NCBI GenBank assembly: GCA_964505725.1
Contig: CAZDJK010000008.1
Location: 506-64,505 of the forward strand
Length of the DNA: 64,000 nucleotides
Reading direction: 5' to 3'
DNA from: an uncultured Bifidobacteriaceae bacterium
GTDB lineage: Bacteria; Actinomycetota; Acidimicrobiia; IMCC26256; DASPTH01
The notes under the pieces are model-generated. The model ran no database searches. It was given only the letters and a program-made list of their open reading frames with translations, and had not been told where the DNA came from. Below, piece by piece: positions 6,176 through 44,771 of this stretch. The position numbers and the translations under genes were made by a program. Within the stretch, counting starts at the first letter, position 1, and each line of letters starts with the position of its first letter.

Positions 6176-6387
6176 GAAGGATGTTGCCGTTCATGTCCTC
6201 GATGTTCTCGAAGCTGGCGGCGACGCCCTTCTTCGAGACCGTGTTCGGGAGACCGGTGTACGGGTTGCTCTTGACGTCCTTCATCACGATCGGCTGACCG
6301 ACGAGCTTCGCGGTGCTACCGACGAGTTGGGAAGAGGCCGATCATCGGGTGAAAAGTCGGATGGGCCTCGGTCATCGCGACCTTCAT
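6150..6387 (-). pseudogene. 5' fragment of an unidentified gene, frameshifted and truncated
   Basis: AGGAGG (6390-6395), then MKVAMTEAHPTFHPMIGLFPTRR* in one frame. It continues in another frame as ...AKLVGQPIVMKDVKSNPYTGLPNTVSKKGVAASFENIEDMNGNILPTDPDGYDP with high GC3. Protein-like sequence ends where the convergent gene 5114..6175 ends. Confidence 0.35.
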
Positions 6388-6454
6388 CACCTCCTGCACG
6401 CAAATGGTCCCGGTGGACGAGGTGCGAGTTCGGACCTTGCTTCGGATCGGGGAA

Positions 6455-8101
6455 TCAGCTCCCGAACCGGAGATAATCGTGGACCGATCTCACGGCCGCC
6501 GATCCTTCACCAACGGCTGCGGCCACCCGCTTGGTCGATCCGGAGCGAAGATCGCCGACCGCGAACAACCCGGGGTGGCTGGTCTCGAAGGCGAGCGGAC
6601 GTCGGCCCAGGTCGTTCCACCGGCCGTCAAGCTGGCTCTCGAGAAGAGATCGGTCGGTCAGGACGAACCCGCGGTCGTCGAGGGTGGCACATCCGGAGAG
6701 CCAGCCGGAAGCGGGCTCTGCACCGATGAAGGAGAACAGTCCGGCGACCGGCACGGACCTCTCCCCTCCCGCCCCAGACAGGCGCACAGCACGGAGCGAC
6801 CGCTCGCCCTCCAGACCGACGACCTGGGTTCGGGTCAGCACCTCGATGTGCGGGTGGCTGTCGAGCCGGTCGACGAGGTAGCGGGACATCCCTGCGTTCA
6901 GGTCCGCACCCCGGATCACCACCGTCACCTGGCTCCCCTGTTCTGCCAGGAACACTGCCGCCTGCCCGGCCGAGTTGCCGCCCCCGACCACGATCACGGG
7001 CTCACCGGAACACTGGCGCGCCTCGAGGTCCGTGGCGGCGTAGTACACCCCGCTGGACTCGAACTCGGAGAGCCGGTCCACCTCCAGTCGCCTGTAGCGC
7101 GCACCGGTGGCCGCGATGACGGCGCGGGCCACGAGCTCCGTGCCATCGGCCAGCTCGGTGACGAGATGGCCTGCTAGTTCCCGTAGGCCCGCCACTGCGC
7201 AGGGGGCACTCAGGGAGGCACCGAACTTCTCGGCCTGCACGAGCCCGCGCTGGGTGAGGTCGCTCCCGGAGATGCCGGTGGGGAAGCCGAAGTAGTTCTC
7301 GATGCGTGAGCTCGTTCCTGCCTGACCGCCCGGGGCAACCATGTCGACACAGATCGTGCGCAACCCTTCGGATGCCCCGTAGACGGCGGCGGCGAGGCCG
7401 GCCGGCCCACCACCCACGACGACGAGATCGACGCACCGCTCCGGCACGTTGGCGACGGTGAGCCCGAGGTACTCGGAGAGTGCGCCCGGGCTGGTCCGGC
7501 GCAGGACCTCGCCGGAAGAGATCACCACCGGCAGGTCGGTCGGTTCGATCTGGAATTGCTCGAGCAACGACTCCACCTGCGGATCGGTGTCGGGGTCGAG
7601 CCACTGGTAGGGCAGGCGCGTTCTCGCCAGGAACTCCCGGATCTGGAGGGTCTCGGGTGAATACCGCGAACCGATCACGCGCGTCGTTGCGGCCGCGCCG
7701 GTGATGAGGTCGGCTCGCCGCGCGATGAAGGTGGCCAGGATCTTGTCGCTCAGCCGGGGTTGGGCCGCGATGATCCTGCGGAGGGTCTCGACCGGCACGG
7801 CCAGCACCTCGCCCGGCTCAGCCATGCGGGCGCTCACGAACACCCGGAGCCCGGTCAACAGGTTCAGCTCACCGAGGAACCGCCCGGGAACATGGGTCGC
7901 GATGACGCGACCTTCACCGTCGGCATCGAGCAGGATCTCCACCCGCCCTGACAGCACGACATAGAAGTCGTAGCCCGTGTCGCCCGCCCGGTAGAGGTAG
8001 TCGCCGGCGTCGACCTCTCGGCGGGTACCCAACGGCTCGAGGAGGGCGAGGTCAGCCGCATCGAGGGTCGGGATCGAGCTGTCCGCGTCACTCATCGACA
8101 T
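6455..8101 (-). CDS. cyclic-nucleotide-binding domain fused to a thioredoxin-reductase-like FAD/NAD(P) oxidoreductase
   Basis: N-terminal cNMP-binding beta-barrel (FLGELNLLTG...). FAD motif VVVGGGPAGLAAAVYGASEGL and NAD(P)H motif VIVVGGGNSAGQAAVFLA. Confidence 0.85.
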   Translation of the reverse strand: MSMSDADSSIPTLDAADLALLEPLGTRREVDAGDYLYRAGDTGYDFYVVLSGRVEILLDADGEGRVIATHVPGRFLGELNLLTGLRVFVSARMAEPGEVLAVPVETLRRIIAAQPRLSDKILATFIARRADLITGAAATTRVIGSRYSPETLQIREFLARTRLPYQWLDPDTDPQVESLLEQFQIEPTDLPVVISSGEVLRRTSPGALSEYLGLTVANVPERCVDLVVVGGGPAGLAAAVYGASEGLRTICVDMVAPGGQAGTSSRIENYFGFPTGISGSDLTQRGLVQAEKFGASLSAPCAVAGLRELAGHLVTELADGTELVARAVIAATGARYRRLEVDRLSEFESSGVYYAATDLEARQCSGEPVIVVGGGNSAGQAAVFLAEQGSQVTVVIRGADLNAGMSRYLVDRLDSHPHIEVLTRTQVVGLEGERSLRAVRLSGAGGERSVPVAGLFSFIGAEPASGWLSGCATLDDRGFVLTDRSLLESQLDGRWNDLGRRPLAFETSHPGLFAVGDLRSGSTKRVAAAVGEGSAAVRSVHDYLRFGS

Positions 8102-8189
8102 GGAGGGTATCGGGACTCCCTTGATCGGCAGATTGCCCTCACCCGGGCGTGATCACGGGAGCGGTCGACTGAACCGGTCGATCGTCGAC

Positions 8190-8682: not shown

Positions 8683-8904
8683 ATGCGACGGCGCTTCTAC
8701 ATCGAGGGAGGGCTCGCCGTACTCGCGGGCGTGCTCGCGATCGTCACTCTGTTCTGGCACGACTGGATCGAGACCGTGTTCCGTGTCGATTCGGACGAAG
8801 GCAGCGGCGCGTTCGAATGGGCCATCGTCATTGTGCTCGCACTCGTCGCGATCGGACTCGCCGTCGCCGCACGCGTCGAATGGCGGCGCTCGGCCACGAC
8901 CTAG
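8683..8904 (+). CDS. small two-helix membrane protein
   Basis: 73-74 aa with two hydrophobic helices flanking WHDWIETVFRVDSDEGSGAFEW. GAGGGGG lies upstream of ATG 8683 (GTG 8680 is an alternative). Its stop shares the palindrome CTAG (8901-8904) with the convergent gene. Confidence 0.55.
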   Translation: MRRRFYIEGGLAVLAGVLAIVTLFWHDWIETVFRVDSDEGSGAFEWAIVIVLALVAIGLAVAARVEWRRSATT

Positions 8905-11900
8905 ACGAGCTGCACGCTCAGGGCCGCCACGTGCGGCGACCGCAGCACCAGGTCGTTCGCAAGAGTCGCGTCACTCCCGACGCCGCCACGCAAATCGGCC
9001 GGGCCGATCTGGTTCGTCCCACTCATCACAACCGCTATGAGCACGAACGTCGCGCCGTCGGCGTCCGCGGTGAAGTCGACGTCGAACGTCACCGGGCGTG
9101 GCATACGGGAGTCAACGTCGACCAACGGGCCCAACCACACCGCGCTCCCGGCCGCCGTCCAGCCGTCCGGCAGCGACGCGGGCGGCGTCCCCGAACCCGC
9201 CGCGCTCACCAACGCCGGCCACAACCCACCGAGCGGCACGTTTCCGTCGGCGGGCAGCGCGTGGCGCACCAGCGCAACATGAACGTCACTCGCCGGTGCG
9301 GCCGTCAACCAGCGTTGGTGCACCAGAACGTGCACCTTCGCGACACGCGTGTCGAGCCGCTTTGCGGCGCGCGGCGATGGGTGGTCGTCACCCCGCACCA
9401 CGAACAGATCCGCCTCGGTCGGCGGCTCGGCCCACGCCCGACCGGTCGTGTCGATCACGATGTCGGGGCTGTCGTCCCAGCGGACCACGCCCTTCTCACC
9501 CGCAGTCGGCGGACCGGTGAGCGGTGTCGGGATACGCCGGCGCGTGTCGCTCGGGAACACCCTCACGAACGTCAACGGACTCGACGTCGTGTTGACGAGA
9601 TCCGTCTCCCAGACGCCCCGCGCCTGAAGCGCGGCACGCAACAGGCCGGCGCCGTCGGAGCGGTGGATCGACAGATCCTGCACCGCCGCCTCGGGCAGGC
9701 CGTTCACGAACTGGTCCCACGCCCACGTGTACGTCGCATTCCCGTGGCCGTCGTCGCCGATCGTCAGGTGGCCGCGCACGACCCCCACGCTCGTGCCGAC
9801 ATAGACCGTCGCCCGGTCGGCGGGATCGACCACGACGGCGAGCGCGGGCGCGGTGACGCGCGTCCCTGTCCACATGCCGTTGGGATGGTTGACGCGCAGG
9901 CCGCATGGCACCCAGGTGCTGTCGCCGTCGAAGAACCACAACGTGTCGCGATGGGCGCCGGTACCGGTCAAGGAGGCGTCGCCGACCGTCGCCACATAGC
10001 ACGACCCGAGGGGGCCGTGGTCAGGGTCGTGCACGCAGACGTCGCTCACCTTCCCGGCGGCGGGCAGGAACAGCAGCGAGTCGCCGTTCGTGAAGCTGGT
10101 CGTTTCGCCCGTTGTGCTGGGGTCGCGGAAGAGCTGCGCGGTCCGGCGCGTCCACGCAAACGGTCCCGTGCCACTGGTGGCGCGCGTCCCTTCGAGCCAC
10201 ACCAAGCCGGTGGGATACAGCGCGAGTATCCGCAAGATGTGATTGTCGCCGTTGTCGGCGGGCACCGCGAATTTGACCGCGAGCACGCCGCCCGAGCCGG
10301 TGAAGATCGTGCCGTGATACGTGCTCGTGCAGCACAGGAACGTCGGCACCTGGTCTGCGTACGTGCCGTTGGGCGCGGCCGGGTCGAGCAGGTCTTGCTG
10401 CAGGTCGGGATTGTCGCTCGCGCGCGGATCGGTTGCGGTCGGCAACGTCGCCCACGACCGGCCCCAATCACGCGTGTACCAGATGCGGTTCGTCCCCATC
10501 GCGAAATGGGTGTCGCCGCCGTGCACGACCGCGTCGCCGCCCGAGTAGAAGAGCGCGCCGCCGTTGTTGTAGTCGCTCTCCACGGTCTCCGACGTCTTCA
10601 CGCCGTTGTCGTGCGGCGGGTGCCGACGGAACACGGGCTGTATGCCGTCCTCGTCGCTGTTGTCCCACTGCGCCGTGGTGTACTGCCGGTAGTAGCGGCT
10701 GGTCGTGCCGGGCTCGAACACGACGCCGCCACCGTCGCCACGGAACTTCTGCCGCCACAAGCTGTCGCCGATCCGCTCGGCGGTGCCGTTGTCCTGGAAG
10801 CCGGCCACGACGATCCCCGGATTCGTCGGATGCGACGCCACGTAACCCGCCTCGAGCACAGCCAACCCGTCGTTGCGGCTCCGGAAGCTCTTTGGGTCGC
10901 CCCCCGCGTCGGAACGGAACACGCCGCCGTCGCAGCCGACCCACACCGTTCGATCGGTGGCGGCGTTGTTGGCCTTGGGACCCACGCGCAGCACGTGCAC
11001 GTCGGGGTGCACGCCCTCACCGATCAGTTCCGCGGTCACGGCCGACGCGGTCGTCTCGCAGCGGTAGATCGCGCCGTTGTACTCCCCGCCGATCGAGACC
11101 GCCGCGCCCCCTACGTAGACGCGCGACGAGATGTCGGGATGCACGGCGATGCACATGTCGTAGCTCGACTGGTCGCCGGTCGACATGAACAGGCGCGCCG
11201 GCAGTCCGGGCAGCTCCGTGCCCTGCAGCGTGGCGAGGGCGGCCGTCGGGACCGTCGGGTCGACCACCCAGAGGTGAGCCGACGGCACCGTCTCCTTGTC
11301 CTTCGGCTTGCGCTGGCCGAGCACGTACAACTTCGCCCCGTCGGCCGATTTGGCGAGCTGCACGCGCCGGTTCTCGATGTTGTTCAGCTGCACCGACTGG
11401 AATGTGAGCGTTCCCGGCGTGATCGGGACGGTCGCGTCGCCCGTGAACTCCGCGACCCACAGCTGCCCCCACCCGGCAGCCCAGATCCGCACGTGGCCCG
11501 TGTCGGGCCTCGTCATCAAGACGTCGACCGGGAACAGGGTGCCGGCCGGGGTGGTCCATGGCGCGACCGCCGCCTTGGCCCACGGTCCGAGTGGCGGCCA
11601 CACGTAGATCCCGTCGGTCGTGCCGGCGACAAGCTGGTCGCGCCGGCCGGGATCGTCGGCGATGCGGAACACCGCGGTCCCGCGTGGCGGCGTCGGGTTG
11701 GGGGCGATCGACCACCCGGCACCGGCGGCGGGACCGAGCGCGTGGAGGATGCCGATCCCCCTGAGCTGGCCGCCGGGCAGGCCGCCGGCGCCGCCGGTGA
11801 GCTCACCGGTTCCCACCCACACCTCGTCCTGCGAGCCGTCGGTCGCCGCGCCCCACAACACCTCGATCGCGCCGCACGCGAGCGCATTGCCGACCGGCGT

Positions 11901-12302
11901 CAACGTGTCGCGGTTCGGGGACTGCACGAACTCGTCGAGCGGACGCCACGACGCGCCCCGATCAGGCGAGTACCACACGCCGCCCGACGCCGACGCGGCG
12001 TAGACTCGCAAACCGTTCGTGGGCTCGACCTGCAGATCGCGGATGCGGCCCGCGACTTCGGGCGTGCCGGTGGCCTGCCCGTTGACCATCACCGACGGTC
12101 CGATCGGGAACCACAGGTGGTCTCCTCCGACCGGCGCGTCGCCGAACACCTGACGGGCGGCATGCGGGCTCGGCGGCGGCTCCGGCGGCACGCCGTCGGG
12201 CGCGGTCACGTTGGGCACGGGCCGGACCCGGTCGAGGTGCACGCCGCGCCCCGCGGGATCGTCTCGGCGGCGCGGCGGCGCGGGCCATTCGTAGCGACTC
12301 AC
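8901..12302 (-). CDS. large Asp-box (BNR) beta-propeller repeat protein, operon gene 6
   Basis: Track ORF 8901..12416, trimmed to GTG 12302 (GGAG 4 nt upstream, 7 nt after the upstream stop at 12310). Asp-box-like motifs YSPDRGASW, YTRDWGRSW and FRSDAGGDPKSF, plus recurrent GG[VI][WFY] strands. No signal peptide. Confidence 0.8.
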   Translation of the reverse strand: MSRYEWPAPPRRRDDPAGRGVHLDRVRPVPNVTAPDGVPPEPPPSPHAARQVFGDAPVGGDHLWFPIGPSVMVNGQATGTPEVAGRIRDLQVEPTNGLRVYAASASGGVWYSPDRGASWRPLDEFVQSPNRDTLTPVGNALACGAIEVLWGAATDGSQDEVWVGTGELTGGAGGLPGGQLRGIGILHALGPAAGAGWSIAPNPTPPRGTAVFRIADDPGRRDQLVAGTTDGIYVWPPLGPWAKAAVAPWTTPAGTLFPVDVLMTRPDTGHVRIWAAGWGQLWVAEFTGDATVPITPGTLTFQSVQLNNIENRRVQLAKSADGAKLYVLGQRKPKDKETVPSAHLWVVDPTVPTAALATLQGTELPGLPARLFMSTGDQSSYDMCIAVHPDISSRVYVGGAAVSIGGEYNGAIYRCETTASAVTAELIGEGVHPDVHVLRVGPKANNAATDRTVWVGCDGGVFRSDAGGDPKSFRSRNDGLAVLEAGYVASHPTNPGIVVAGFQDNGTAERIGDSLWRQKFRGDGGGVVFEPGTTSRYYRQYTTAQWDNSDEDGIQPVFRRHPPHDNGVKTSETVESDYNNGGALFYSGGDAVVHGGDTHFAMGTNRIWYTRDWGRSWATLPTATDPRASDNPDLQQDLLDPAAPNGTYADQVPTFLCCTSTYHGTIFTGSGGVLAVKFAVPADNGDNHILRILALYPTGLVWLEGTRATSGTGPFAWTRRTAQLFRDPSTTGETTSFTNGDSLLFLPAAGKVSDVCVHDPDHGPLGSCYVATVGDASLTGTGAHRDTLWFFDGDSTWVPCGLRVNHPNGMWTGTRVTAPALAVVVDPADRATVYVGTSVGVVRGHLTIGDDGHGNATYTWAWDQFVNGLPEAAVQDLSIHRSDGAGLLRAALQARGVWETDLVNTTSSPLTFVRVFPSDTRRRIPTPLTGPPTAGEKGVVRWDDSPDIVIDTTGRAWAEPPTEADLFVVRGDDHPSPRAAKRLDTRVAKVHVLVHQRWLTAAPASDVHVALVRHALPADGNVPLGGLWPALVSAAGSGTPPASLPDGWTAAGSAVWLGPLVDVDSRMPRPVTFDVDFTADADGATFVLIAVVMSGTNQIGPADLRGGVGSDATLANDLVLRSPHVAALSVQLV

Positions 12303-12309
12303 GGTGCTC

Positions 12310-15300
12310 CTATCCCCCCGGCGCCGGCGCGGGGGGCGGGTTCGGGTCGATGCGCACCCAACCCTCTTGTACCTCGGGCGGGGTGTCGGCCAACAGCGCG
12401 GCCTGCGTGGCCGCAAGGATCGGATCGTCGCGCCACGACGACGGGGTGTCCCGGCGCGTGAACAACTGCTCCGCCGGGAACGACGCGACCTTCGGCAACC
12501 GCACCTTGTCGGGGTCGATCAGGAGCGGCCCGGTGCGCAGCGACGGCGCGAGCTTGGCCAGCCCGGGCTGCACCCAGTCGCGTGCCAGCGCGTGCGCAGT
12601 GCGAGGCAGGATCCCCGACGTCAGGTTCACCGAGCCGCCGGGATGCATCAACAACGTGATGCGCACGGTCTGGCCGGGGTGGATGTGCAACACGCCCGCC
12701 GGGTCGACGTACGGGTGGTCGATGGGCACGGGCGTCACCGGCGACGAGCCGTCGAGCGCGAGCACGCCGAGCAGCCGCCCGCTCGGCAACGCGTTCGCGA
12801 CGACGACGCGATCGACCACGTGGAAGTGCAAGTAGTCGTCCTCGACGAAGTAGCCGAGCAGGCTGTCGTCGGCGCGGGTCAGCTCGCCGAGCCGGACGGT
12901 GATATCGAGGGCGGCGAGCGCGTCGTACGCCGCGACGCGGCCGGCTTGGAGTTCGGGCGCGGCGTAGACCACGGCGTCGACATCGCGTTGCACGTCGAGC
13001 GCGAGCCGGGCGGCGACCACCGCAATTGGCCGGCCAACCAGTCCCGCGATGTGCTCGTTGCCGAGCGTGCCAAACGGGTCGACGTTCCACAACGTGGTGT
13101 CAATGGCCCGCAGCATCGCGGAGAGCGCCGACTCGGTCTCGGGCCGGTCGGGGCGGCCCTGGCGCGCCGTTGCGTCGGCGGCGACGAGCCCGGCCGCGAT
13201 CCAGCCGACGCGGTGCCTGGTGACGTCGGGATCATCGGTGGGCCCCGCGCCCGGCCCGACATCGACCCGGCCCGGCGCGATCTCCCACGACACTGCGTCA
13301 CTGAACGGATCGTGGAACAACTGGCCGAGCGGGGTGCCGTCGGTCGCGAACACTTCGAGCGCCTCGTCCATATGGTCGGGCAGCAAGAAGCCGGCGACCG
13401 GGTTCACCTGCTTCGTCACATCGGACTGATCGACGCATGCAAGCGCGGCGTCGGGTGCCGAGGTCGTGGCGTCGACGAGGTCGAAGCGCCACCGGCAGGG
13501 CGCGGTGATGCGAGGGCGCGCGCGCATCGTCGCGGGCGCGCCGTCGGCGACGCGCGTCGGCACGAGCGCGGCGCTCGCGGGCAGGTCGAGGGTACGGCCG
13601 AACGCGTCGACGAGGCGCGCGGATGTGAGCTGGACGTGCCCGGCCGCGAGCAGGCGCGGCAACTCGTCGACGGTCGGGCGCCGGGTGCCGTCGGCGGCTT
13701 GGTCGTCGTCCTTGTGGAGCAGGCCGCGGTCGTAGGCGAGCCCGAGCAGTTGCTCGCGCACGCCGTCGAGCGCGAGCGAAAGCAGGTCGAGCTCGGCGAG
13801 GTCTTGTTGCAGCGCCGCGAGCGCGGCCTCAGTGTTGGGGTCGGCGAGCGCGTCGCCACTGCGTTGCCGCTCCTGGGTGAGCCACAACCCGATGCCCGCG
13901 GCCAGCGTGCGGGCGACGCCGTTCACGAGCGGGCTCCGCCCGGTGTACGTGACGGTGTCGGGCGTGGTGACCGGCGGGGCGTCCGGGTCAGTCGTGGGGT
14001 CGTTGTCGGTGGCGCCGAGATCCCAACCTAGGAGCGGTCCGAGCTCGAGCGTCACTTCCCAGTCGCAGAACAACGGCCGCCACGGCTGGTTCCACATCGT
14101 GACGCCTTCGGGATGCGACCACACGCCGTCCGAGAGCGAGAGGCGCAGCAGTCCCTCGACCGCGCGTTGGCGGTCGGGGGCTGTCGTGACTGGTGTGTTC
14201 ACGATGTTCGTCAGGCGGGTGTTGTCGGCCGCGTAGTACGAGTACGACACCGCGGCCTCGGCAACGAAGCGGCTGTTGATCAGCGCTGGGTTGATCCCAG
14301 GCGGGCTGGCGCGGCGGGTGCGCCACGCTGTGAGGTAGGGATCTTCCGCGAGCGCCTCCCGGGCGAGGTCGAGTGCTTCGGGCGGAACAGCACCGCTCCC
14401 GATCGTCGTCAGCAGGTCCTTCGCCGAGAGCACGCCCGCGAGACCATTCGTCACCTGGTTCGACAGCCGGCACATCAACACGCCGTTCGCCTCTTCGCGC
14501 TCGACCGCGCTCAGCTGGCGGCCGCCGCCCGCGACCGCGACCACCGCTGCCGAGGGGTACTGGAAGCGTGGCGCGGGCCGCGGCACCTCGCGCACGGTCG
14601 CGTCGGGCGTCGGCGGCACGGCGTTGGGGCGCGCGTCGAAGTGGGCCGCGACGCGTTGCGAGAGGTCGGCGGCGCCGAACGCCGACGTCATCGTCGCGAC
14701 CGGCCGTTCGATCGCGTTCCAGAGGACCGTGGCGCTGCCCAAGCCGAGCGCGGGCGCGAGCAACGCCCGTTGGTTCGTCGACCCGACCGCGCCGGGCCGG
14801 AACCCTGCGCCGGGATCGGTAGGTGCGCCGGGCCGGTCGAGGAACCGGTCAATCGCTTCGGTGCCGCCCGGCAACGACCCGAACCCTTGGGCGTGCTCGT
14901 ATTCCTCCACGTCGGCCCACACGTCGCTGTCCTGCAACCGCATGATCAGGCCGGCCGAGAAGGCCCCGAGCAGCCGCTCGGCCGAGCGGCGCTCGTCATC
15001 GTCGGTTTGCCCCATACCCGTGCCGGCCGCCGCGAGTGTGGCCGCGAGGTCGGGCGTGTTCGAACCGAGCACGACGCGCAAAGCATCGGTGCCGGGGCGG
15101 GCGTCGGGCGCGGCCGCGCCGTGCAACGGCACGCCATGCAGCCGGCCGTGCAGCAACGTCGAACGGGTCGGCGCGGGCGGGATGAGCGCGGCGCTGACCG
15201 CTTCGGCGAGAAAGCCGCTGAACGCGGGCTGGAACACCTCGGCGGTCGGCGCGACCTCGCCCGCGAGCGTTGTGCCGACGGCCCCGCCGCGACGCGCGTT

Positions 15301-16200: not shown

Positions 16201-17249
16201 GGTTCGAGGACCTGTTTCGCGAGCGCGAACTTCTGCACGAGCTGAGCGACGTTGAGCGTGGCAACGAATGCGTCGGTATTGGGCGGCACGGTCGTGTCGC
16301 CGAACACTTGCCGCAGCGGGAACCGCAACATCTCGATCGCGAACTCGGCCGCGTCGACCGGACCCGTCATGTGAGCAGCGGTTTGGCTGACGAGCCGCTG
16401 GTTCAGCACGCGCATGTTGATGACGCCCGGCGACCCGGCCCGGAACGGCACCGGCACGGTCACGTCTTGCCCGCCCGACTGGAGCGGTTCGGCGGCCGGG
16501 TGCGTGACGTCGCGCACACCAAGTACCGCGCTCTGCTGCGTCGGGTCCGACGCCGCGTCGAGCCGTACACCGAACTGCACACCGGCCCGCGGCTCTTCGA
16601 TGTGCACCACCGCGGGCACCCCGTCGAACAGCACGAGCAATACCGCCGGCGCGAGCCGCTCCATGCGCAACAGGCGGACGCGATCGGGGCTGGTGTCGAT
16701 CTCGGGCACGTCGGCGTCGTCGGGGTGCGTGTCGGCCGAATACGCCCGCACGTGCATGCCGGGCCAGCCCGACACCAGCCGCGAGCGCATCACGAAGCCG
16801 GTAATCGGACCGGCGACGCCGATCGGCCGGCCTTGGGCGTCGACCTGCGGCGCGTCGGAGTCCTTCATGCGTACCAGGCGCTCGGCCCGGTCGACCTCGT
16901 CGCGCACGATCCCGTAGAGCTGCGCGAGCTGCACGTGGTCGGCAGAGTTGACGGTGCCGACACTGAGCGCACCTTCGACGAGCGCGTCGGTGAAGTTGCG
17001 GTCGAGATAGAAGAAGCGGATCGTCTCCGCGGGCAACAGCTTCGCGTCGGCGACGAGATAGTCGAACGGCACCCCTTCGAGCAGCCGTAGGCGGGCGAGG
17101 AATCGAACGAGGTCGGCGGGGACGACACCGTCGGGCGGCACGCCGTCTTCGACGCCGCTCGGCGCCCCCACGATGTCGACGATCTGCGTGAGCTGCAGCG
17201 CCGATACCTGGATCGCGGCCCAGTGCGTGGCTGCGGTGAGCTCGCTCAC
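16197..17249 (-). CDS. 350-aa hypothetical protein, operon gene 4
   Basis: Track frame 16197..17870, but the first ~207 codons are Arg-rich and overlap the upstream gene. GTG 17249 forms a GTGA overlap with that gene's stop (17246-17248). Blocks LRLLEGVPFDYLVADAKLLPAETIRFFYLDRNF and ITGFVMRSRLVSGWPGMHVRAY. Confidence 0.75.
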   Translation of the reverse strand: MSELTAATHWAAIQVSALQLTQIVDIVGAPSGVEDGVPPDGVVPADLVRFLARLRLLEGVPFDYLVADAKLLPAETIRFFYLDRNFTDALVEGALSVGTVNSADHVQLAQLYGIVRDEVDRAERLVRMKDSDAPQVDAQGRPIGVAGPITGFVMRSRLVSGWPGMHVRAYSADTHPDDADVPEIDTSPDRVRLLRMERLAPAVLLVLFDGVPAVVHIEEPRAGVQFGVRLDAASDPTQQSAVLGVRDVTHPAAEPLQSGGQDVTVPVPFRAGSPGVINMRVLNQRLVSQTAAHMTGPVDAAEFAIEMLRFPLRQVFGDTTVPPNTDAFVATLNVAQLVQKFALAKQVLEP

Positions 17250-37884: not shown

Positions 37885-38658
37885 TCAGCCCGCGTCGACC
37901 AGCCAGCTCATGCCGATGTCGCGCAGGCCGTTGGTGAGGCGCGCGGTGACCTGCGACAGTTGGTTGGTCAGCAGGATCACGCCGAACACCGCGAGCACCG
38001 CAGCGGAGACGAGCGTGATCACGCGTGAGTGGCGGCGGAACCACGCCAGCGCATGGGTGAGCTTCCCCATCAGCAGGCCGCAGGCGAGGAACGTGACGCC
38101 GAGGCCGAGCGAGTACGACACGAGCAGCGCGGTGGCCCGCCCGATGTTCTGGCCCGCGGCGGCGAAGCCGAGCACCGCGCCGAGGACCGGGCCGATGCAC
38201 GGGGTCCACCCGAGACCGAAGGCGACACCCGCGACCGGCGCCGCCACCGGACCGAAGCGCTCGAGATGGGGGTGGAACCGGAACTCCTGGTAGAGCCGCG
38301 GCGTCGTCAGCAGCTGCGACCCCGCGAGGTAAGCGGCCATGAGCAGCACGAGCCCGCCCGAGATGCGGGTGAGCGTGTCCTGGTTCTTGAACAGAGCGGT
38401 GCCGGCCGCGGTGGTGACCAGCCCGAGCAGCACGAACACCGCGGTGAAGCCGAGCACGAAGAGGCCGGTGTTCAGCGCGATCCGCCCGAGGTAGTGGCGG
38501 TCGCCGTCCTGCATCTCGCCGACGGAGAGGCCGGTGACGAGGCTGAGGTAGCCAGGGACGATCGGGAGGACGCACGGCGAGAGAAACGAGATCACGCCGC
38601 CCCCGAACGCGGTCAGGAGATAGAGGTTGCCGCCGACGTCGGCGCCGAGCACGGACAT
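37885..38658 (-). CDS. ccdA: cytochrome c biogenesis / thiol-disulfide transporter CcdA (DsbD-core) family
   Basis: ATG 38658; the upstream part of the track ORF is Arg/Pro junk. Motifs FLSPCVLPIVPGY and GWTPCIGPVLG in a multi-helix membrane protein. Confidence 0.85.
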   Translation of the reverse strand: MSVLGADVGGNLYLLTAFGGGVISFLSPCVLPIVPGYLSLVTGLSVGEMQDGDRHYLGRIALNTGLFVLGFTAVFVLLGLVTTAAGTALFKNQDTLTRISGGLVLLMAAYLAGSQLLTTPRLYQEFRFHPHLERFGPVAAPVAGVAFGLGWTPCIGPVLGAVLGFAAAGQNIGRATALLVSYSLGLGVTFLACGLLMGKLTHALAWFRRHSRVITLVSAAVLAVFGVILLTNQLSQVTARLTNGLRDIGMSWLVDAG

Positions 38659-38704: not shown

Positions 38705-38757
38705 GCAAACTTGCGTCGCTTGGACGGGTTATTTCCGTTCGAGCGACGCAAGTTTGC
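38705..38757. terminator. 16-bp perfect-stem hairpin spanning the stop codon of the DUF4430-like gene
   Basis: GCAAACTTGCGTCGCT (38705-38720), a 21-nt loop, then AGCGACGCAAGTTTGC (38742-38757). The stop codon 38729-38731 lies in the loop. No U-tract. Confidence 0.5.
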
Positions 38758-39589
38758 GGCGGCGGACCCAGACGGCGGCGGCGACGGCGACCGCGAGGAG
38801 GGCAGCAGCGACAAGGACGCCCGTGGGCGAGCCGTGGTCGGGCCGACCCGCCGAGGCGGCGGCCGCCTCGACGCCCGTGCCGTGGCGCGTCGTCGCCGGG
38901 GCGCCGCCGGTCGTGCCGGCCGGGGTCGACGAGGTCGGCGTCGAGGCGTCGGGCGCAGTCGAGGGTGTCGTGCCTGGGTCCCGCGTGGCGCCCGCTGCGG
39001 CCGACGTCCCTCCCGACGCGCCCGAGGCGCCTGGTGTTGCGGCCGCGGCGCCGCCCGGCGAGCTCCCTGCGGTTGGGAGAGGAGCCGGCGGCGGCGCGGC
39101 AGTCGGAGGTGGTGCGCACGCGACGTAGCTGCAGAAGTCGGCCGACCCTCGCGGCGGGCTCTGGCCGGCTTGCCAGCGCCACCCGTCGACGTCGCCGGCG
39201 CGGATCGTGGAGCCGCCGGCACCGACGGACGAGAAGCTCCAGGACCCACCGCGTCCGTGCCAGTACGACCAGAACTCGCCGTTGGGGCCCTCGAGGCACG
39301 ACGGGCCGGCCGGGTTCCCCACGCCGTCGATCGCGCACACCGCGGCGCCGGGCCCGGCGAAGCCCTGCGTCGTGACCGATGCGACCTGCTGGAGCGCGGC
39401 GAGCCCGCTCTCGCCGCTGCCGACGTCGACCTGCGCGGTGCGTACGTGCGAGCCGTAGTCGATGACGATGACGGCGATGGTGCTCCCGGCCGCGGGCGTG
39501 GCCGTCGACAGCGTGGCCGCGCCCGTCGCGCCGGCTGCGATCGTCGCGAAGCCGACGATCGCAGCGAGCGCGCGTGCGACGCGGGTCAT
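38729..39589 (-). CDS. DUF4430-like secreted protein with Pro/Thr/Ala linker and C-terminal membrane anchor
   Basis: ATG 39589 in ATGA overlap with the upstream gene. Has a signal-like N-terminus. Pattern IAVIVIDYG...GLAALQQV...CAIDGVG...FWSYW...GAGGSTIRAGDVDGWRW matches the DUF4430 / transcobalamin beta-domain pattern. C-terminal hydrophobic helix followed by RRRK. Confidence 0.75.
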   Translation of the reverse strand: MTRVARALAAIVGFATIAAGATGAATLSTATPAAGSTIAVIVIDYGSHVRTAQVDVGSGESGLAALQQVASVTTQGFAGPGAAVCAIDGVGNPAGPSCLEGPNGEFWSYWHGRGGSWSFSSVGAGGSTIRAGDVDGWRWQAGQSPPRGSADFCSYVACAPPPTAAPPPAPLPTAGSSPGGAAAATPGASGASGGTSAAAGATRDPGTTPSTAPDASTPTSSTPAGTTGGAPATTRHGTGVEAAAASAGRPDHGSPTGVLVAAALLAVAVAAAVWVRRRKLASLERK

Positions 39590-40992
39590 CCTGTGAACGC
39601 GGGTTGGAGGTTCGCCCCGTCGGCCGCGACGGGACCGGCCGCGGCGGCGCTCACGGTGATGTCGACGCTGGTGCTCACTTCCTGCCCGTTCGGATCGAGT
39701 CCGCTGACCACGAGTTGGTGCACGCCGGGCGGGGTGTCGAGCGGGATCGTGACCGTCACCGAGTAGCTGCCGGTTGCGTCGGTCGTAGTGCTCGCGAGCA
39801 CGACCGGGTCGCTGCGCAGCGTCACGGTGAGGGTGGTGCTCGCGGCGAACCCGCCGCCGGTGAGGGTCACCGCGTCGCCGGGCGCAGGGTTGGTGGTGCT
39901 CGACGTCGGCGGCGCGGGAGACGGCGGCGTCACCGCGCACGTCTCTGCGGGCGCGCGCACGATGGGTAGCCACGACCGCAGGAGACCCTCGACGGCCTGT
40001 GCGGTGGCGAAGGTGTTGACGGGCGGGAACGCATCGTTCGGGCTCGCGATGTGGCCGTCGGGTTGCTGCTGCGACTCGGTCCACGCGTCGGGGCTCGTGT
40101 ACGGCGTTCCCGCAGCCGCGGGGTCGACGGTGTCGCGCCAGCACGAGCTGGTGACGTCGAACCCGGCCGACGTGATGCCCAGCACGGCGAGCGCGGTCGA
40201 GTTGGGATCGTCGGCGCCGAAGGCCTGCCACGCGCCGCTCGGCTGGTGCTGCGCGGCGAGGAACGCGAGGCCCGCGTGCACGTTCGCGTCCGACGCGTTC
40301 GCCCCGCCCGCGACCAGCGCCTCGATCGCGAGCGCGCTCGTGTCGATGTCGAGGTCGCTGCCGTCGGGTTTGCCGCTGAAGCTCCACCCGCCATTGACCT
40401 GCTGAGCCGCCCGGACCGTCGCGAGCGCCGCGGGCGGCGCGGCCCCGCACACGAGCGTCTTGGCGAGGATCCCGTAGAGCGTGTCGTTGAACACCCCGAA
40501 GCTCGGAGTGTTCGCACCACAGCCGGAGTCGAGCTTCGATGCGAGGTCCACCGGGTTCCCGTCGCCGTTGGCGTCGAACGCCGACGAATCGAGCCCGAGC
40601 GGGAACGCCGATAGCACGATGGTCTTGGCCGCGGCGCCGGCGGTGATGTCGCTCGCCGCCTCGGCGTCGAGCGCGTCGAGCGGCGTCGGCCCGCTGCCCC
40701 CGCCGAAGTGGATGGCGGCGAGCGCGGCGCGCGCCTCGCCGGTGCTCCACGTACCGGACGTCTGGGCGTTCTCGGCGATCGCGAGCGACGCGTCGCGCGT
40801 CTCGAAGCCGGGGAACTGCGCGACCTCGAAGCCGCCGTCGCTCTGCTGCTGGGTGACGAGCCACGCGACCGCGGCGGACGCGGTCGACGCGGCGTCGGCC
40901 GCGCCCAGCGGCGGCGGCGACGCGAGGCCGAGCGAGGCGACAACGAGCGCGCACGCGCCCAAGAGGGCGAGCACGCGGGGGGAGCGTGACAT
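39586..40992 (-). CDS. secreted prenyltransferase/squalene-cyclase-repeat (alpha/alpha-toroid) protein with a C-terminal Ig-like domain
   Basis: ATG 40992 after GGAGG. Signal peptide MSRSPRVLALLGACALVVASLGLA. Repeated motifs QQSDGGF, QVNGGWSF and HQPSGAW are typical of terpenoid-cyclase-like toroids. Confidence 0.75.
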   Translation of the reverse strand: MSRSPRVLALLGACALVVASLGLASPPPLGAADAASTASAAVAWLVTQQQSDGGFEVAQFPGFETRDASLAIAENAQTSGTWSTGEARAALAAIHFGGGSGPTPLDALDAEAASDITAGAAAKTIVLSAFPLGLDSSAFDANGDGNPVDLASKLDSGCGANTPSFGVFNDTLYGILAKTLVCGAAPPAALATVRAAQQVNGGWSFSGKPDGSDLDIDTSALAIEALVAGGANASDANVHAGLAFLAAQHQPSGAWQAFGADDPNSTALAVLGITSAGFDVTSSCWRDTVDPAAAGTPYTSPDAWTESQQQPDGHIASPNDAFPPVNTFATAQAVEGLLRSWLPIVRAPAETCAVTPPSPAPPTSSTTNPAPGDAVTLTGGGFAASTTLTVTLRSDPVVLASTTTDATGSYSVTVTIPLDTPPGVHQLVVSGLDPNGQEVSTSVDITVSAAAAGPVAADGANLQPAFTG

Positions 40993-41039
40993 GGTGAACC
41001 TCCGTGTGGCCCCTGGTCCACGAGGGCCTGTCGTCGACT

Positions 41040-41215
41040 GCCCGGAGGCAGCCCTCCTACCGGAGCACCGGTGGCCCGGTGGACAACGGCGGGTAGCCTG
41101 GCTCACGGTCTGCGGGTCAATTCGGACCGCAGTGCCGCTCACAGTTGCGGGTCAGCGTCGGTCTCGCACCGACTTCCCCCGTCCGGCGACGGCCAAGCCT
41201 CCACCGGACCGCACG
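41040..41215 (-). promoter_or_regulatory. cobalamin (B12) riboswitch
   Basis: The minus strand reads ...GGGGGAAGTCGGTGCGAGACCGACGCTGACCCGCAACTGTGAGCGG...GTGAGCCAGGCTACCCGCC.... It contains the conserved GGGAA..GGTG...GCTG.CCCGCAACTGT core and a B12 box (AGCCAGG.TACC.GCC). P1 pairs GGTCCGGTGGA (41200-41210) with TCCACCGGGCC (41073-41083). It sits directly upstream of CDS 39586..40992. Confidence 0.8.
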
Positions 41216-41263
41216 CAACATCCGGGTTGCGCGCAACCGCTGTCGAGGGTGCACCCTAGAGAC

Positions 41264-42388
41264 GTGACGAGCACCGCGCAAACCGTGCCCGCGCCCGTCG
41301 GTGGGCACGCGCGCGGCGAGGTTCGCGCCGGCATCGCACTCGACGCGCCGTGGCACGCGGGCGTGTGGCTGGTGTGGGCGTTGTCCGCCGCCGCGGCCGT
41401 GCAGCTCGCGCCGAGCCCGTTGTACGTGGCCCTCGTCATCGGCATCGCCGCGCTCGCGGTCGGCGCGCACGCGCGGCCGGGCCCGTACACCCGCGCGTTC
41501 CCCCTCCTCGTGGGCGTGGGGGTCTTCTTCGCGGTGGTGCGGATGCTGCTCACCGCGATCACGACGCACGGCTTCGGCCACGTGCTGTTCACGCTGCCGC
41601 AGGCCACGCTCCCGCAGCTGCTCGGCGGGTTCACGGTCGGCGGATCGATCGAGCTCGACGTCATCCTGCAGTCGCTCGCCGAGGGCTTCGCGATCGTCGG
41701 CGTGATGGCCGCCTTCGGCGCGTTCAACGCAGTGGTCTCCCATTCCGAGCTCGTCCAGAGCACGCCGCGCGCGTTCTACGAGGTCGGGCTCGTGGTCGTC
41801 GTCGGCCTCGCCTTCGTCCCGTCGACGCTCGTCGCCATCGGCGACGTGCGCGAAGCCGACCGCGCTCGGACCGGCGGTCACGTCGTCCGCCGCGGGCGGC
41901 TCCTGCGCCAGGTGGTCCCGGTGCTCGAGCTCGGCATGGAGCGCGCGGTCACGCTCGCGGAGTCGATGGATGCCCGTGGTTTCGCGCGTTCCGGGGGCGG
42001 CACGCGCGACCACGTCGCCGGCTGGACGGGGTTGGCGTCGCTGCTCGCGCTCGGCGCAGCGTTCGTGGCGCTCATCGGGCGGGCCGAGATCGCGGCCGCG
42101 GTGCTCGGTCTCGGCGGCGCGCTCGGGCTCGCGGTGGCGGTCCTCCTGGCTTCGTCGGGCACGCGGCGGGCGCGCTACCGGCCGCGGCGGATGACCGGAG
42201 CCGACTGGCTCGTGGCGCTGGCCGCGCTGGCGGCGCCCGCCGCCATGGCCGTGATCGCGATCGTGGGTGACGGGAGCCTGGTCTGGTACGCGAGCCCCCT
42301 GCGGTGGCCGGCGCTCCACGTGCTCCCGCTGCTCGCGCTGCTGCCGCTGCTCGTGCCGGTGCTGGCGCGGAACCCGGGAGCGGCATGA
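41264..42388 (+). CDS. ecfT: ECF transporter transmembrane (T) component
   Basis: The track frame is open from 40481; the earliest plausible start outside the riboswitch is GTG 41264 (start uncertain). Multi-helix protein with CbiQ/EcfT-like C-terminal Arg-rich coupling region (ESMDARGF). Confidence 0.75.
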   Translation: MTSTAQTVPAPVGGHARGEVRAGIALDAPWHAGVWLVWALSAAAAVQLAPSPLYVALVIGIAALAVGAHARPGPYTRAFPLLVGVGVFFAVVRMLLTAITTHGFGHVLFTLPQATLPQLLGGFTVGGSIELDVILQSLAEGFAIVGVMAAFGAFNAVVSHSELVQSTPRAFYEVGLVVVVGLAFVPSTLVAIGDVREADRARTGGHVVRRGRLLRQVVPVLELGMERAVTLAESMDARGFARSGGGTRDHVAGWTGLASLLALGAAFVALIGRAEIAAAVLGLGGALGLAVAVLLASSGTRRARYRPRRMTGADWLVALAALAAPAAMAVIAIVGDGSLVWYASPLRWPALHVLPLLALLPLLVPVLARNPGAA

Positions 42389-43947
42389 CCGCGATCGAGG
42401 TGCGCGGCGTCTCCTTCGCCTACCCCGACGCCGCCCGTCGCGCGCTCGAGGACGTCGACCTCGGCGTGGAAGCGGGCGAGCTCCTGCTCGTGATCGGTTC
42501 GTCGGGATCGGGCAAGAGCACGCTCCTGCGCACCATCAACGGGCTGGTACCGCACGCGAGCGGCGGCGCGTTCGGCGGCGACGTCGTGACGTTCGGGCGC
42601 TCGACCCGGACCCACCACCCCCGCGAGCTCGCCGACGTCGTGGGCTTCGTCGCCCAGGATCCCGAAGCGCAGTTCGTGGTGGACCACGTCGAGCGCGACA
42701 TCGCGTTCGTGCTCGAGAACCTCGGGTTCTCACCCGCGGCAATGCGCCGGAGAGTGGAGGAGACCCTCGACGCGCTCGGCATCGCGCACCTGCGCGATCG
42801 CGACCCGTCGACCCTGTCCGGTGGTGAACGCCAACGCTGCGTGATCGCCGGCGCGCTGGCGGCCGCGCCGTCGGCCCTCGTGCTCGACGAGCCGACCTCG
42901 CAGCTCGATCCGCAGGGCGCCGACGACGTGCTCGCGGCGCTCACCCGGCTCAACCACGACCTCGGCACCAGCGTCGTGCTGGCCGAGCACCGGCTCGACC
43001 GCGCCGCGCCGCTCGCCGACCGGGCGGTGCTCGTCGACGCCGGCCGCGTCGGTGCGCCGCAGTCGCCCGGCGCCGCGCTGGCCACCTACCCGGGCGCGCC
43101 GAGCGTCACCCGGCTCGGCCGCGTGCTCGGTTGGGATCCGCTGCCGCTCACCGTCCGCGACGCGCGCGCGCTCGCCGCTCGCGACGCGACCGCCCTCCCG
43201 CCACCTCCCGAACCGGTCGCCCGGGAGCCGGGCGCGCCGCTCGTCTCCGCGGAGAAGATCCGCGTGGAGCTCGGCGGCCGCGCCGTCCTCCGCGACGTCG
43301 GCGTCACCGTCTCCGAGGGCGACGTGGTCGCGCTGTTCGGGCGCAACGGCGCGGGGAAGACGACGCTCCTGCGCGTGCTGGCGCGCCTGCTGGCGCCCGC
43401 CCGCGGCACCGTGTCCGGCGACGCGCGCGCGGCCTACGTGCCCCAGAACCCGAACACCCTCCTGTTCGAGCCGACGGTGCGCCGGGAGGTGGAGGCGACG
43501 CTGCGGCTCCTCGGACGCAGCGACGGCGCCGCGGTGGCGCGATGGCTCGACGCCCTCCATCTCGCCCATCTCGCCGACCACCACCCCCGGAGCCTCTCGG
43601 GCGGCGAGCGCCAGCGCGTCGCCATCGCCGCGGTGGCAGTCGGCGGCGCGCCCCTTCTCCTCCTCGACGAGCCGACCCGGGGCATGGACGCGGGCTCACG
43701 GGACGCGCTGGAGCACGCCGTGCACGCGCACGCGAAAGGAGGCGGCGCGGTCGTGCTCGCCACCCACGACGTGGAGCTGGCGGCGCGGTGCGCCACCCGC
43801 GCGGTCGTGCTGGGCGACGGCGAGGTGGTCGCGGAGGGCGACGCACGCGGCGTGCTGGCGGGCTCGTTGTTCGCGCCCCAGGTGCTCCGTGTCCTTCCTC
43901 CCTACCTCACGGTCGAAGAGGTCGAGGCGGAGATGACCCGCCGATGA
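42385..43947 (+). CDS. fused tandem ECF/ABC ATPase (EcfA-EcfA')
   Basis: ATGA overlap at 42385-42388. Two full ABC modules: GSSGSGKST...LSGGERQR...LDEPTS and GRNGAGKTT...LSGGERQR...LDEPT. Confidence 0.9.
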   Translation: MTAIEVRGVSFAYPDAARRALEDVDLGVEAGELLLVIGSSGSGKSTLLRTINGLVPHASGGAFGGDVVTFGRSTRTHHPRELADVVGFVAQDPEAQFVVDHVERDIAFVLENLGFSPAAMRRRVEETLDALGIAHLRDRDPSTLSGGERQRCVIAGALAAAPSALVLDEPTSQLDPQGADDVLAALTRLNHDLGTSVVLAEHRLDRAAPLADRAVLVDAGRVGAPQSPGAALATYPGAPSVTRLGRVLGWDPLPLTVRDARALAARDATALPPPPEPVAREPGAPLVSAEKIRVELGGRAVLRDVGVTVSEGDVVALFGRNGAGKTTLLRVLARLLAPARGTVSGDARAAYVPQNPNTLLFEPTVRREVEATLRLLGRSDGAAVARWLDALHLAHLADHHPRSLSGGERQRVAIAAVAVGGAPLLLLDEPTRGMDAGSRDALEHAVHAHAKGGGAVVLATHDVELAARCATRAVVLGDGEVVAEGDARGVLAGSLFAPQVLRVLPPYLTVEEVEAEMTRR

Positions 43948-44771
43948 CCGCGGCGACGACGACGCCGACCACCCCCAGCGTGCCGGCGCGGCGAGCGCTC
44001 GCGACCCTCCGCCCCGTGCTCGTGTACGTGCTCGTCGTGGTGGTGGGCGCCGCCGCGTTCCTGTACCCGTTCTGGTTGCCGTCGACGTCGTTCACGAGCG
44101 AGGCGCACAGCGGCGATGCGCCACTCGTCGCCGCGCTCGTCGGCGCGCTCGTGGTCGCCGCGGTCGTGCTCGAGGTTCGCCGGGGCACCATGAACGGTGC
44201 GACCGTCGCCATCCTGGGCGTGCTCTCGGCGTCGGCAGGGCTGCTGCGGCTCATCGACCTCCCGGGCGGCGGCAGTGGCATCTTCTTCCTCGTCGTGCTC
44301 GCCGGCACCGCGTTCGGCCCGCGGTTCGGGCTCCTGCTCGGCATCTGCGCGATGGCGGTGTCGGCGATCGTCACCGGCGGGATCGGTCCGTGGCTGCCGT
44401 TCCAGATGCTGGCGCTCGGCTGGATGGGCGGTGCCGCCGGCGCGGTCGGGCTCTGGACCGCACGCGTGACGCCGCGGGTCGAGGTGGTCGTGCTCGCCGC
44501 CTACAGCTGGGTGTGGGCGTTCCTCTACGGGGCGATCATGAACATCTGGTTCTGGCCCTTCGCCCGCGGCGGCGCCCTCGACTGGCACCCGGGCCTCGGC
44601 TTCACCGCGACGCTCGCGCGCTACTGGAGCTTCTACGTGGCGACCTCGCTCGGATGGGACGCGGCGGGCGCGGTCACCAACGCCCTCCTCGTCCTGGTGA
44701 CGGGCGCCGCGCTGCTGCGCACGCTCCGCCGCTTCGCCCACCGGCTCGAGCCGGTCGTGGATCTGGTCTGA
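43944..44771 (+). CDS. ECF transporter substrate-capture (S) component, substrate unknown (corrinoid inferred from context)
   Basis: ATGA overlap at 43944-43947. A 275-aa polytopic membrane protein, last gene of the ECF operon. Confidence 0.65.
   Translation: MTAATTTPTTPSVPARRALATLRPVLVYVLVVVVGAAAFLYPFWLPSTSFTSEAHSGDAPLVAALVGALVVAAVVLEVRRGTMNGATVAILGVLSASAGLLRLIDLPGGGSGIFFLVVLAGTAFGPRFGLLLGICAMAVSAIVTGGIGPWLPFQMLALGWMGGAAGAVGLWTARVTPRVEVVVLAAYSWVWAFLYGAIMNIWFWPFARGGALDWHPGLGFTATLARYWSFYVATSLGWDAAGAVTNALLVLVTGAALLRTLRRFAHRLEPVVDLV

Follow-up and report, generated by a model that had tools for sequence, protein, structure and literature searches.

A cobalamin-riboswitch-controlled gene pair beside an energy-coupling factor transporter: a candidate corrinoid capture module in Acidimicrobiia

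Layout of the locus and its riboswitch

A stretch of 64,000 nucleotides (nt) from an uncultured actinobacterium of the class Acidimicrobiia (contig CAZDJK010000008.1) carries two coupled genes for exported proteins behind a cobalamin riboswitch. We call the whole stretch the window; all coordinates refer to it, and its G+C content is 71.6%. Both genes lie on the minus strand. Gene 1 (39586..40992, 468 residues by translation) encodes a secreted alpha/alpha-toroid protein that is SCO2321-like, and gene 2 (38729..39589, 286 residues by translation) a membrane-tethered protein whose homologues carry the Pfam label PF28005 'SCO2322'. The ATG of gene 2 overlaps the TGA of gene 1 as ATGA. Divergent from the pair, on the plus strand, are genes for the T component, a fused double ATPase and the S component of an energy-coupling factor (ECF) transporter, themselves joined by ATGA overlaps. 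An earlier note on this DNA had proposed that the pair resembles a split transcobalamin or intrinsic factor that could feed the divergent transporter. The coordinates it gave (38729-40992) are exact, and the ATGA coupling and the divergent ECF operon that it described can both be read in the sequence.

The same note had placed a B12 riboswitch ahead of the pair, and Rfam agrees. The aptamer (41071..41223, minus strand) matches the Cobalamin riboswitch RF00174 over the full model (1-189) with 60.7 bits (E 1.4e-12; the gathering score is 31.5), on the same strand as gene 1 and 78 nt upstream of it. The expression platform and ribosome-binding site lie in between (40993..41070, minus strand), with GGAGG 8-12 nt before the ATG. 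No intrinsic terminator was found between the aptamer and gene 1, and in the minimum-free-energy fold of the leader the segment just past the Shine-Dalgarno sequence pairs with the 3' part of the aptamer. Because there is no terminator and the ribosome-binding region can pair in this way, the riboswitch is probably of the OFF type, with control at the level of translation. No more than 26-62 nt separate the GTG start of the divergent ecfT gene (41249, 41264 or 41285) from the aptamer's 5' end, and the two promoters must overlap. Either ecfT is leaderless or its 5' untranslated region is antisense to the aptamer. Equally tight spacing is found in related loci, for example L006.

The association between riboswitch and toroid gene is highly conserved. 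Gene 1 has 630 homologues, mostly from Acidimicrobiia, and its relatives come almost entirely from metagenome-assembled genomes of that class. Our sample for conservation consisted of 80 fetched genomic loci encoding such relatives. A Cobalamin riboswitch stands directly upstream on the same strand in every one of the 11 loci tested with Rfam, and a covariance model of our own, built from these 11 and run on all 80, finds it in 77. Two of the exceptions (L076 and L081) are on contigs cut just upstream of the toroid gene. In the third (L058) the toroid gene is preceded by a beta gene that is truncated by the end of the contig. The distant SCO2322 locus L002 likewise has a riboswitch, and where the toroid and beta genes are separated (L040 and L041) each has its own, as confirmed with Rfam. 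The persistence of the riboswitch in 77 of the 80 loci strongly supports a link between this module and corrinoids.

Some loci contain two riboswitches. These are L037 (5418-5556 and 5797-5907), L041 (4601-4733 and 5806-5923), L053, L060, L065 and L033, where they are arranged in tandem or one per surface-protein gene. The double riboswitches of L037, L040 and L041 are confirmed by Rfam; the rest come from our covariance model.

The two surface proteins

Both proteins start with an export signal. In gene 2 a signal-like N-terminus leads into a domain of about 110 residues (within residues ~36-160; 39110..39484, minus strand). A stalk of about 90 residues rich in Pro, Ala, Thr and Gly follows (residues ~161-252; 38834..39109, minus strand), then a hydrophobic helix (residues 257-275; 38765..38821, minus strand) and RRRK. 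A comparable low-complexity stretch is present in all homologues, and the hydrophobic stretch with RRR(R) is conserved at their C-termini. The C-terminus is more likely a plain membrane anchor. We considered a sortase signal ('SPTG', hydrophobic stretch, RRRK) and rejected it, as the motif is not conserved and reads 'sPvG' in homologues. The signal-like segment, the hydrophobic helix and the AlphaFold2 (AF2) model together bear out the earlier description of gene 2 as a secreted, membrane-anchored beta domain.

In the AF2 model the core of this domain has a predicted local distance difference test score (pLDDT) of ~90. The order of strands and helix, E-E-H-(E-E)-E-E-E, is that of a beta-grasp in which two inserted strands follow the helix. 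This insert is the hallmark of the transcobalamin-like SLBB clade, according to Burroughs et al. (PMC1796856). In a Foldseek search of the PDB, the best 18 matches are all beta domains of transcobalamin, haptocorrin and intrinsic factor, or 3u7z. The last comes from Ruminococcus gnavus and belongs, like these domains, to CATH superfamily 2.170.130.30 (PMC13385337). Their E-values run from 9e-5 to 1.2e-2, and TM-scores to isolated domains are 0.73-0.75 (0.73 for 5no0). After the 18th match the E-value rises about five-fold, from 1.2e-2 to 6.4e-2, and the probability drops from 1.00 to 0.38. The insert and the structural similarity, as seen with AF2 and Foldseek, place the domain in the transcobalamin-like SLBB, or beta-grasp, group of CATH 2.170.130.30. 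The structural comparison with cobalamin carriers that the earlier note had suggested thus comes out in its favour for gene 2.

The family is very large, with 5168 clusters at 50% identity in an exhaustive profile search. Precomputed Pfam labels were examined for 93 gene 2 homologues; the near-identical P0001 and most relatives carry PF28005 'SCO2322'. Gene 2 itself had no match in the Pfam copy searched, which lacks PF28005, and matches the NCBIfam model NF040672, 'SCO2322 family', only weakly (25.3 bits, cut-off 85). An invariant family block, FW..W/Y...G..(D/E)GW, can be aligned by eye with the C-terminal REFWQLL...DGETIELRLVSW of human transcobalamin; the human sequence was checked against the PDB, and the alignment is a reading by eye. 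The cysteines C85 and C98 are invariant. Public names for SCO2322-family proteins are 'hypothetical protein' or 'flagellar hook-length control protein FliK'. The last is attached in NCBI/UniRef to proteins of Kitasatospora, Micromonospora and Lentzea (P0284, P0294-P0296, P0300 and P0318) and looks like a misannotation, presumably arising from the proline-rich stalk. A comparison with the Bacteroides protein BtuH as a DUF4430 protein was dropped, as the BtuH paper mentions no DUF, Pfam or transcobalamin.

Gene 1 begins with what reads as a typical export signal, whose position is kept in the alignment consensus (residues 1 to ~33, with an AxA-type site near LGAADA; 40894..40992, minus strand). 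Residues 1-30 have a pLDDT of ~50 in the AF2 model. The model, built on 38 homologues, has a mean pLDDT of 89. About 14 helices with pLDDT above 90 form an alpha/alpha toroid that spans about residues 31/34 to 340/352 (39937..40893, minus strand), a region delimited by the helices and by a profile match. Residues 374-447 (39652..39873, minus strand) form a six-stranded beta-sandwich with weak matches to the immunoglobulin (Ig)-like families Big_13 and PGS-Ig, and include the peptide that the earlier note had quoted as part of an Ig-like module. We regard this domain as accessory because only 6 of 82 related loci carry it. Both the secreted toroid and the C-terminal Ig-like module of that note are therefore upheld by the export signal, the model, the structural search and the Pfam matches.

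The best Foldseek matches of gene 1 in the PDB are single-domain class II terpene cyclases, with 8pak and MstE (6sbb) at the top (E 2e-5 to 9e-5, TM-score 0.53-0.58). Drimenyl-diphosphate synthases, squalene-hopene cyclase and prenyltransferase beta subunits come next. At the level of sequence, the gene 1 family profile matches squalene-hopene cyclase repeats among PDB sequences at 8e-10. The single sequence stays under the Pfam thresholds (SQHop_cyclase 18 bits, gathering 26.1) and has no Pfam match to Cobalamin_bind (PF01122). The D-x-D-D acid motif does not occur anywhere in the 468 residues. Cyclase activity is unlikely because this motif is absent and the protein is exported, and gene 1 is a secreted, probably non-catalytic toroid. 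We therefore set aside its assignment as a class II terpene cyclase or squalene-hopene cyclase, given the missing DxDD(T/E)A motif, the export signal and the SQHop_cyclase score below gathering.

A terminal P-x-F-T-G is conserved in gene 1 and its paired homologues (39586-39600, minus strand). GGA, the codon of the final Gly, forms together with the stop codon TGA and an AGGA further upstream the ATGA overlap and the Shine-Dalgarno sequence of gene 2, and toroids without a downstream beta gene have other C-terminal endings. The motif is probably conserved at the nucleotide level, for translational coupling. A sortase signal at '...FTG' was rejected, as the GGATGA overlap and the Shine-Dalgarno sequence explain the ending. 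A lipobox at 'LLGAC' was rejected because its Cys is not conserved in the alignment. Of the other cysteines, C284 and C352 are invariant, and C158 and C182 nearly so.

The module across related loci and its neighbours

Gene neighbourhoods were examined 6 kb to either side of the toroid gene. About 50 loci have toroid, beta and ECF T, A and S genes together, arranged in four or more different orders. The dominant order, that of the window and found in about 45 loci, is S< A< T< RS> TOR> BETA> (ccdA>), where RS is the riboswitch, TOR the toroid gene and BETA the beta gene. Other loci have the single-operon orders RS> BETA> (RS>) TOR> T> A> S> and RS> TOR> T> A> S>, with the ECF genes behind the riboswitch. 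A third arrangement, BETA< RS< T> A> S> RS> TOR>, gives each surface-protein gene a riboswitch of its own. The suggested link between the pair and the divergent ECF transporter is supported by this conserved synteny and by loci in which toroid, beta, T, A and S genes form one riboswitch-led operon.

The two halves also occur in single chains. We found the orders beta-beta-toroid (P0264), beta-toroid-beta (P0130) and toroid-beta-beta-CWB2 (P0136), and a further fusion in P0259. Among these only the P0264 toroid is scored by the gene 1 profile, over its full length (1.4e-22), and it also matches the NCBIfam family SCO2321_fam. The toroids of P0130, P0136 and P0259 were called from weak Pfam Prenyltrans or SQHop_cyclase matches. 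At the distant locus L002, a toroid gene of 459 residues (5625-7004) follows the riboswitch, overlaps the SCO2322 gene by 4 nt and lies beside ECF S, double-ATPase and T genes. Its product has a sortase sorting signal at the C-terminus, made up of LPATG, a hydrophobic stretch and RRRR. Judged by this ending, the toroid of that lineage is anchored to the wall; of the two window proteins, only the beta protein has a tether.

In a neighbour-joining tree, gene 1 of the window falls in a clade where toroid and beta genes are always coupled. A second clade holds the stand-alone toroids and also those of loci in which the beta gene comes first or is transcribed separately. The stand-alone loci are L015, L017, L018, L019-L021, L027, L028, L030, L031, L036, L037, L039, L044-L048, L053, L054, L060 and L065. 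The toroid gene lies at about 5850-7040 in most of them, and the gene that follows usually points the other way.

The ECF transporter beside the pair consists of a CbiQ-like T component (41249..42388, plus strand, if the first GTG is used), a fused double ATP-binding cassette (ABC) ATPase of the EcfA-EcfA' type (42385..43947, plus strand; two ABC_tran domains, 2.4e-54) and an S component of unassigned specificity (43944..44771, plus strand; PF12822 ECF_trnsprt, 1.5e-9). The T protein of the window had no match in the Pfam search. Homologous open reading frames (ORFs) in related loci score 1e-160, and the L002 homologue carries PF02361 CbiQ. With T, two ATPase domains and S encoded together, the transporter is of the dedicated (group I) kind. 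The S component has no NCBIfam match and no match among PDB sequences at E<=10 (phmmer). It is not detectably CbrT-like, because the sequences searched include that of the CbrT structure.

A gene for a ccdA/DsbD-type thiol-disulfide transporter (37885..38658, minus strand; Pfam DsbD_TM, 1.5e-12) starts 70 nt downstream of gene 2 and possibly belongs to the same operon. At least 22 related loci likewise have such a gene after the one for the beta protein. To judge by the conserved cysteines, its product may serve the disulfide chemistry of the two surface proteins.

No B12-dependent enzymes or cob genes were recognised among ten other large ORFs of the window, a result that is uninformative on auxotrophy. 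Elsewhere in the window lies a cluster of giant proteins that is unrelated to the B12 module. It includes an ORF of 3383 residues (19322-29473, minus strand) with DUF6603 as its single Pfam match (1.5e-114), and beside it ORFs of 691 and 1205 residues (17246-19321 and 8901-12518, both minus strand) without a Pfam match. At 6455-8152 (minus strand) a cyclic-nucleotide-binding domain is fused to a pyridine-nucleotide-disulfide oxidoreductase. A tRNA gene (RF00005, 66 bits) lies at 32218-32291 (minus strand), about 7 kb from the module.

Proposed function and comparison with known systems

Riboswitch control, extracytoplasmic products, a corrinoid-carrier fold and recurrent fusion or co-transcription, including that with ECF genes, favour a role in corrinoid capture. 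We therefore consider it probable that the pair is a surface module that captures a corrinoid (B12 or a precursor) and works with the adjacent ECF importer. The narrower proposal, a two-chain clamp built specifically like transcobalamin, seems to us about evenly poised between right and wrong.

Under the clamp proposal, low intracellular B12 would lead the riboswitch to permit translation of the gene 1-gene 2 transcript, which possibly extends to ccdA. The toroid would be exported in soluble form. The gene 2 product would be exported and held at the membrane by its C-terminal helix, and the stalk of ~90 residues would hold the beta domain within the cell wall or outside it. If the pair works as transcobalamin and intrinsic factor do, its beta domain would bind the nucleotide face of the corrinoid and the toroid would close over the other face. 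The ligand would drive the two separate chains together. The complex would then pass the corrinoid to the S component, for import by the ECF T/A-A'/S complex. Corrinoid binding, clamp geometry and hand-over are steps that we infer. A split carrier of this kind should be physically workable, because the alpha and beta parts of human transcobalamin (TC-alpha and TC-beta), when made separately, assemble only with cobalamin (PMC5599065).

Several observations count against this interpretation. Transcobalamin appears only from rank 25 among the structural matches of gene 1 (4zrp and 2v3n; E 2.5e-3, TM-score 0.41), behind terpene cyclases with far better E-values (from 2e-5). Among PDB sequences neither the gene 1 family profile nor the single-sequence search gave a transcobalamin match. 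Gene 2 likewise has no sequence link to transcobalamin in a single-sequence and two profile searches of PDB sequences. It has no match to DUF4430 (PF14478) at E<=1, six divergent relatives have none at E<=0.1, and PF14478 is found in 0 of 93 homologues. The ECF operon of the window has no riboswitch of its own in the Rfam and covariance-model searches, and its S component is unlike CbrT, the one characterised B12 S component. About 24 loci have a riboswitch and a toroid gene only, and neither a beta nor an ECF gene lies within 6 kb. Finally, in the only homologous split system to have been studied by experiment, that of L. sakei, the reported function is heme import (bioRxiv 10.1101/864751).

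These points reshape the earlier proposal of a split transcobalamin-like pair. Its beta half is well supported at the level of fold. 'DUF4430-like' holds as a resemblance in fold seen by Foldseek and fails as a statement about sequence. Its alpha half stands for the toroid fold only, and its closest matches are terpene cyclases. Transcobalamin does turn up in the structural search of gene 1, although terpene cyclases are better matches. As modelled, gene 1 shares the fold of the transcobalamin alpha domain, yet is not specifically transcobalamin-like.

Those structural and profile matches could also be taken at face value, with gene 1 as an extracytoplasmic terpenoid cyclase or prenyltransferase-like enzyme acting on envelope lipids and only indirectly linked to B12. 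We find this extremely improbable. Gene 1 has a signal peptide and lacks the acid motif, and the sequence matches cover generic toroid repeats only and remain under the Pfam thresholds. Such an enzyme would also leave the riboswitch control, the fusion to a corrinoid-carrier beta domain and the ECF synteny unexplained. The toroid-alone loci raise a different question, as they imply that the toroid may act without a clamp partner. It might bind the corrinoid by itself or be a diffusible scavenger, the beta protein being a tethered docking receptor. Consistent with this, gene 1 has no membrane anchor, and the toroids of the monocistronic loci form a separate clade with those of loci in which the beta gene is separately transcribed. 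Counter to this, the transcobalamin beta domain, when isolated, can bind cobalamin unaided (PMC5599065), single chains that join toroid and beta domains occur repeatedly, and the beta and ECF genes may sit elsewhere in those genomes, given that only 6 kb on either side were covered. We consider the toroid acting alone to be unlikely.

The ligand could also be something other than a corrinoid. In B12 producers, B12 riboswitches often control cobalt importers, and the regulation of cobalt transporters by these riboswitches was reportedly described by Rodionov et al. in 2003. The riboswitch of the window would fit an accessory of cobalt (or nickel) ion uptake, in which the secreted proteins concentrate metal at the surface. 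So would the CbiQ-like T component, and 3u7z, the closest bacterial structure, was deposited as a 'putative metal binding protein'. The S component, however, is a generic ECF_trnsprt protein and not CbiM, and no CbiN is present. Neither secreted protein has a conserved His/Cys-rich metal site, the invariant cysteines are paired, which suggests disulfides, and a toroid of 320 residues with a corrinoid-carrier beta domain seems oversized for an ion. Metal capture is in our view quite improbable. We judge heme, or another non-corrin tetrapyrrole, to be very improbable as the ligand. Its basis is the L. sakei operon, which has the same parts (the beta-like Lsa1839, the alpha-like Lsa1840 and ECF S, double-ATPase and T genes Lsa1836-1838) and for which heme was claimed as substrate. 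There the pair is proposed to scavenge the ligand and hand it over to the S component (Verplaetse et al.; bioRxiv 10.1101/864751). ECF-type heme importers are reported to exist (PMC7299338). Against heme, the cobalamin-specific riboswitch precedes the toroid in 77 of 80 loci where iron or heme regulators would be expected, no heme-related gene is adjacent, and among solved structures the beta fold is known only from corrinoid carriers.

A variant of the corrinoid capture module deserves mention, although we think it rather doubtful. The toroid may be a free, diffusible 'cobalophore', comparable to hemophores, that docks in loaded form on the tethered beta domain, with the heterodimer then handing its ligand to the ECF transporter. 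The stand-alone toroids of some 24 acidimicrobial loci might then be extra scavengers for a single receptor, and the split pair could represent the unfused ancestral state of single-chain carriers, the animal ones included.

The general idea of a bacterial B12 scavenger made of a toroid and a transcobalamin-like domain is already anticipated in the work of Burroughs et al. (PMC1796856) and by the L. sakei pair (bioRxiv 10.1101/864751). What appears to be unrecorded so far is that the actinobacterial SCO2322 family, as judged from our model, is a transcobalamin-beta-fold domain, that SCO2321 is its candidate toroid partner, and that predicted cobalamin-riboswitch control of both families is nearly invariable in Acidimicrobiia. 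To our knowledge, the usual account of ECF transporters includes no extracytoplasmic binding proteins. If the capture module is real, a conserved, riboswitch-controlled surface pair attached to an ECF transporter would be a clear exception to that picture. It would also provide a concrete parts list for the uptake of B12 by Acidimicrobiia and other Actinobacteria, lineages that abound in soil and freshwater and among which the acI group is without B12 synthesis. In addition, whether such systems take up B12 or heme is disputed, and the riboswitch evidence has a bearing on this question. Two large families whose proteins go under labels such as 'hypothetical', 'membrane protein' or 'FliK', SCO2321 and SCO2322, gain a testable function. 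For human transcobalamin a ligand-induced assembly of alpha and beta parts has been proposed, and a naturally split carrier would make it convenient to study.

The nearest relatives by family are SCO2321 and SCO2322 of Streptomyces coelicolor (NF053823 and NF040672; PF28005), families without a functional name. Homologues of gene 2 carry PF28005, and the window proteins are distant members, at about 25 bits against a cut-off of 85. We found nothing relevant on SCO2321-2325 in the literature, and the open-access literature yielded no biochemical demonstration of corrinoid binding by any bacterial system of toroid and beta domain. ECF-CbrT, a characterised ECF importer of vitamin B12, reportedly works without extracellular binding proteins. 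Like the window module, this importer (PMC5997447) is of the ECF type and associated with cobalamin; the S component of the window has no detectable similarity to any solved S component, that of ECF-CbrT included. Riboswitch-led ECF modules have been described by Kang et al. as putative B12 importers in acI Actinobacteria (PMC5301498), and these share with our locus the association of ECF importers with cobalamin riboswitches.

The L. sakei pair is similar to that of the window in its split alpha and beta parts, in the export signal on each and in its complete, dedicated ECF transporter. It differs in having strong HHpred matches to transcobalamin (reported E-values 1e-21 to 1e-24), where no sequence link is detectable for the window proteins. 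No riboswitch was reported there, and phylum and mode of anchoring differ. Burroughs, Balaji, Iyer and Aravind (2007) describe bacterial secreted or anchored fusions of transcobalamin-like SLBB domains with alpha/alpha toroids, encoded in CbiO/CbiQ operons, and predict that they scavenge B12 or its precursors (PMC1796856). Surface SLBB and toroid domains, transporter genes alongside and Ig-fold accessory domains are common to those systems and the window. The examples in their text are fusions and proteins from Firmicutes or archaea, as opposed to the separate, translationally coupled genes described here; the actinobacteria treated there (Corynebacterium, Kineococcus) belong to its ComEA family, and riboswitch control is not mentioned in that text. 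The authors also predict that animal transcobalamin was acquired from Gram-positive bacteria.

The eukaryotic carriers transcobalamin, intrinsic factor and haptocorrin (2bb5, 2pmv and 4kki) combine, like the window pair, a toroid with a beta-grasp domain of CATH 2.170.130.30, and are extracellular. They are one polypeptide where the window has two, and sequence similarity between them is undetectable. The toroid of the window is nearer to terpene cyclases than to TC-alpha, its beta half is tethered on a long stalk, and gene 1 has an extra Ig-like domain. Delivery would be to an ECF transporter, in contrast to the endocytic receptor that takes up the eukaryotic carriers.

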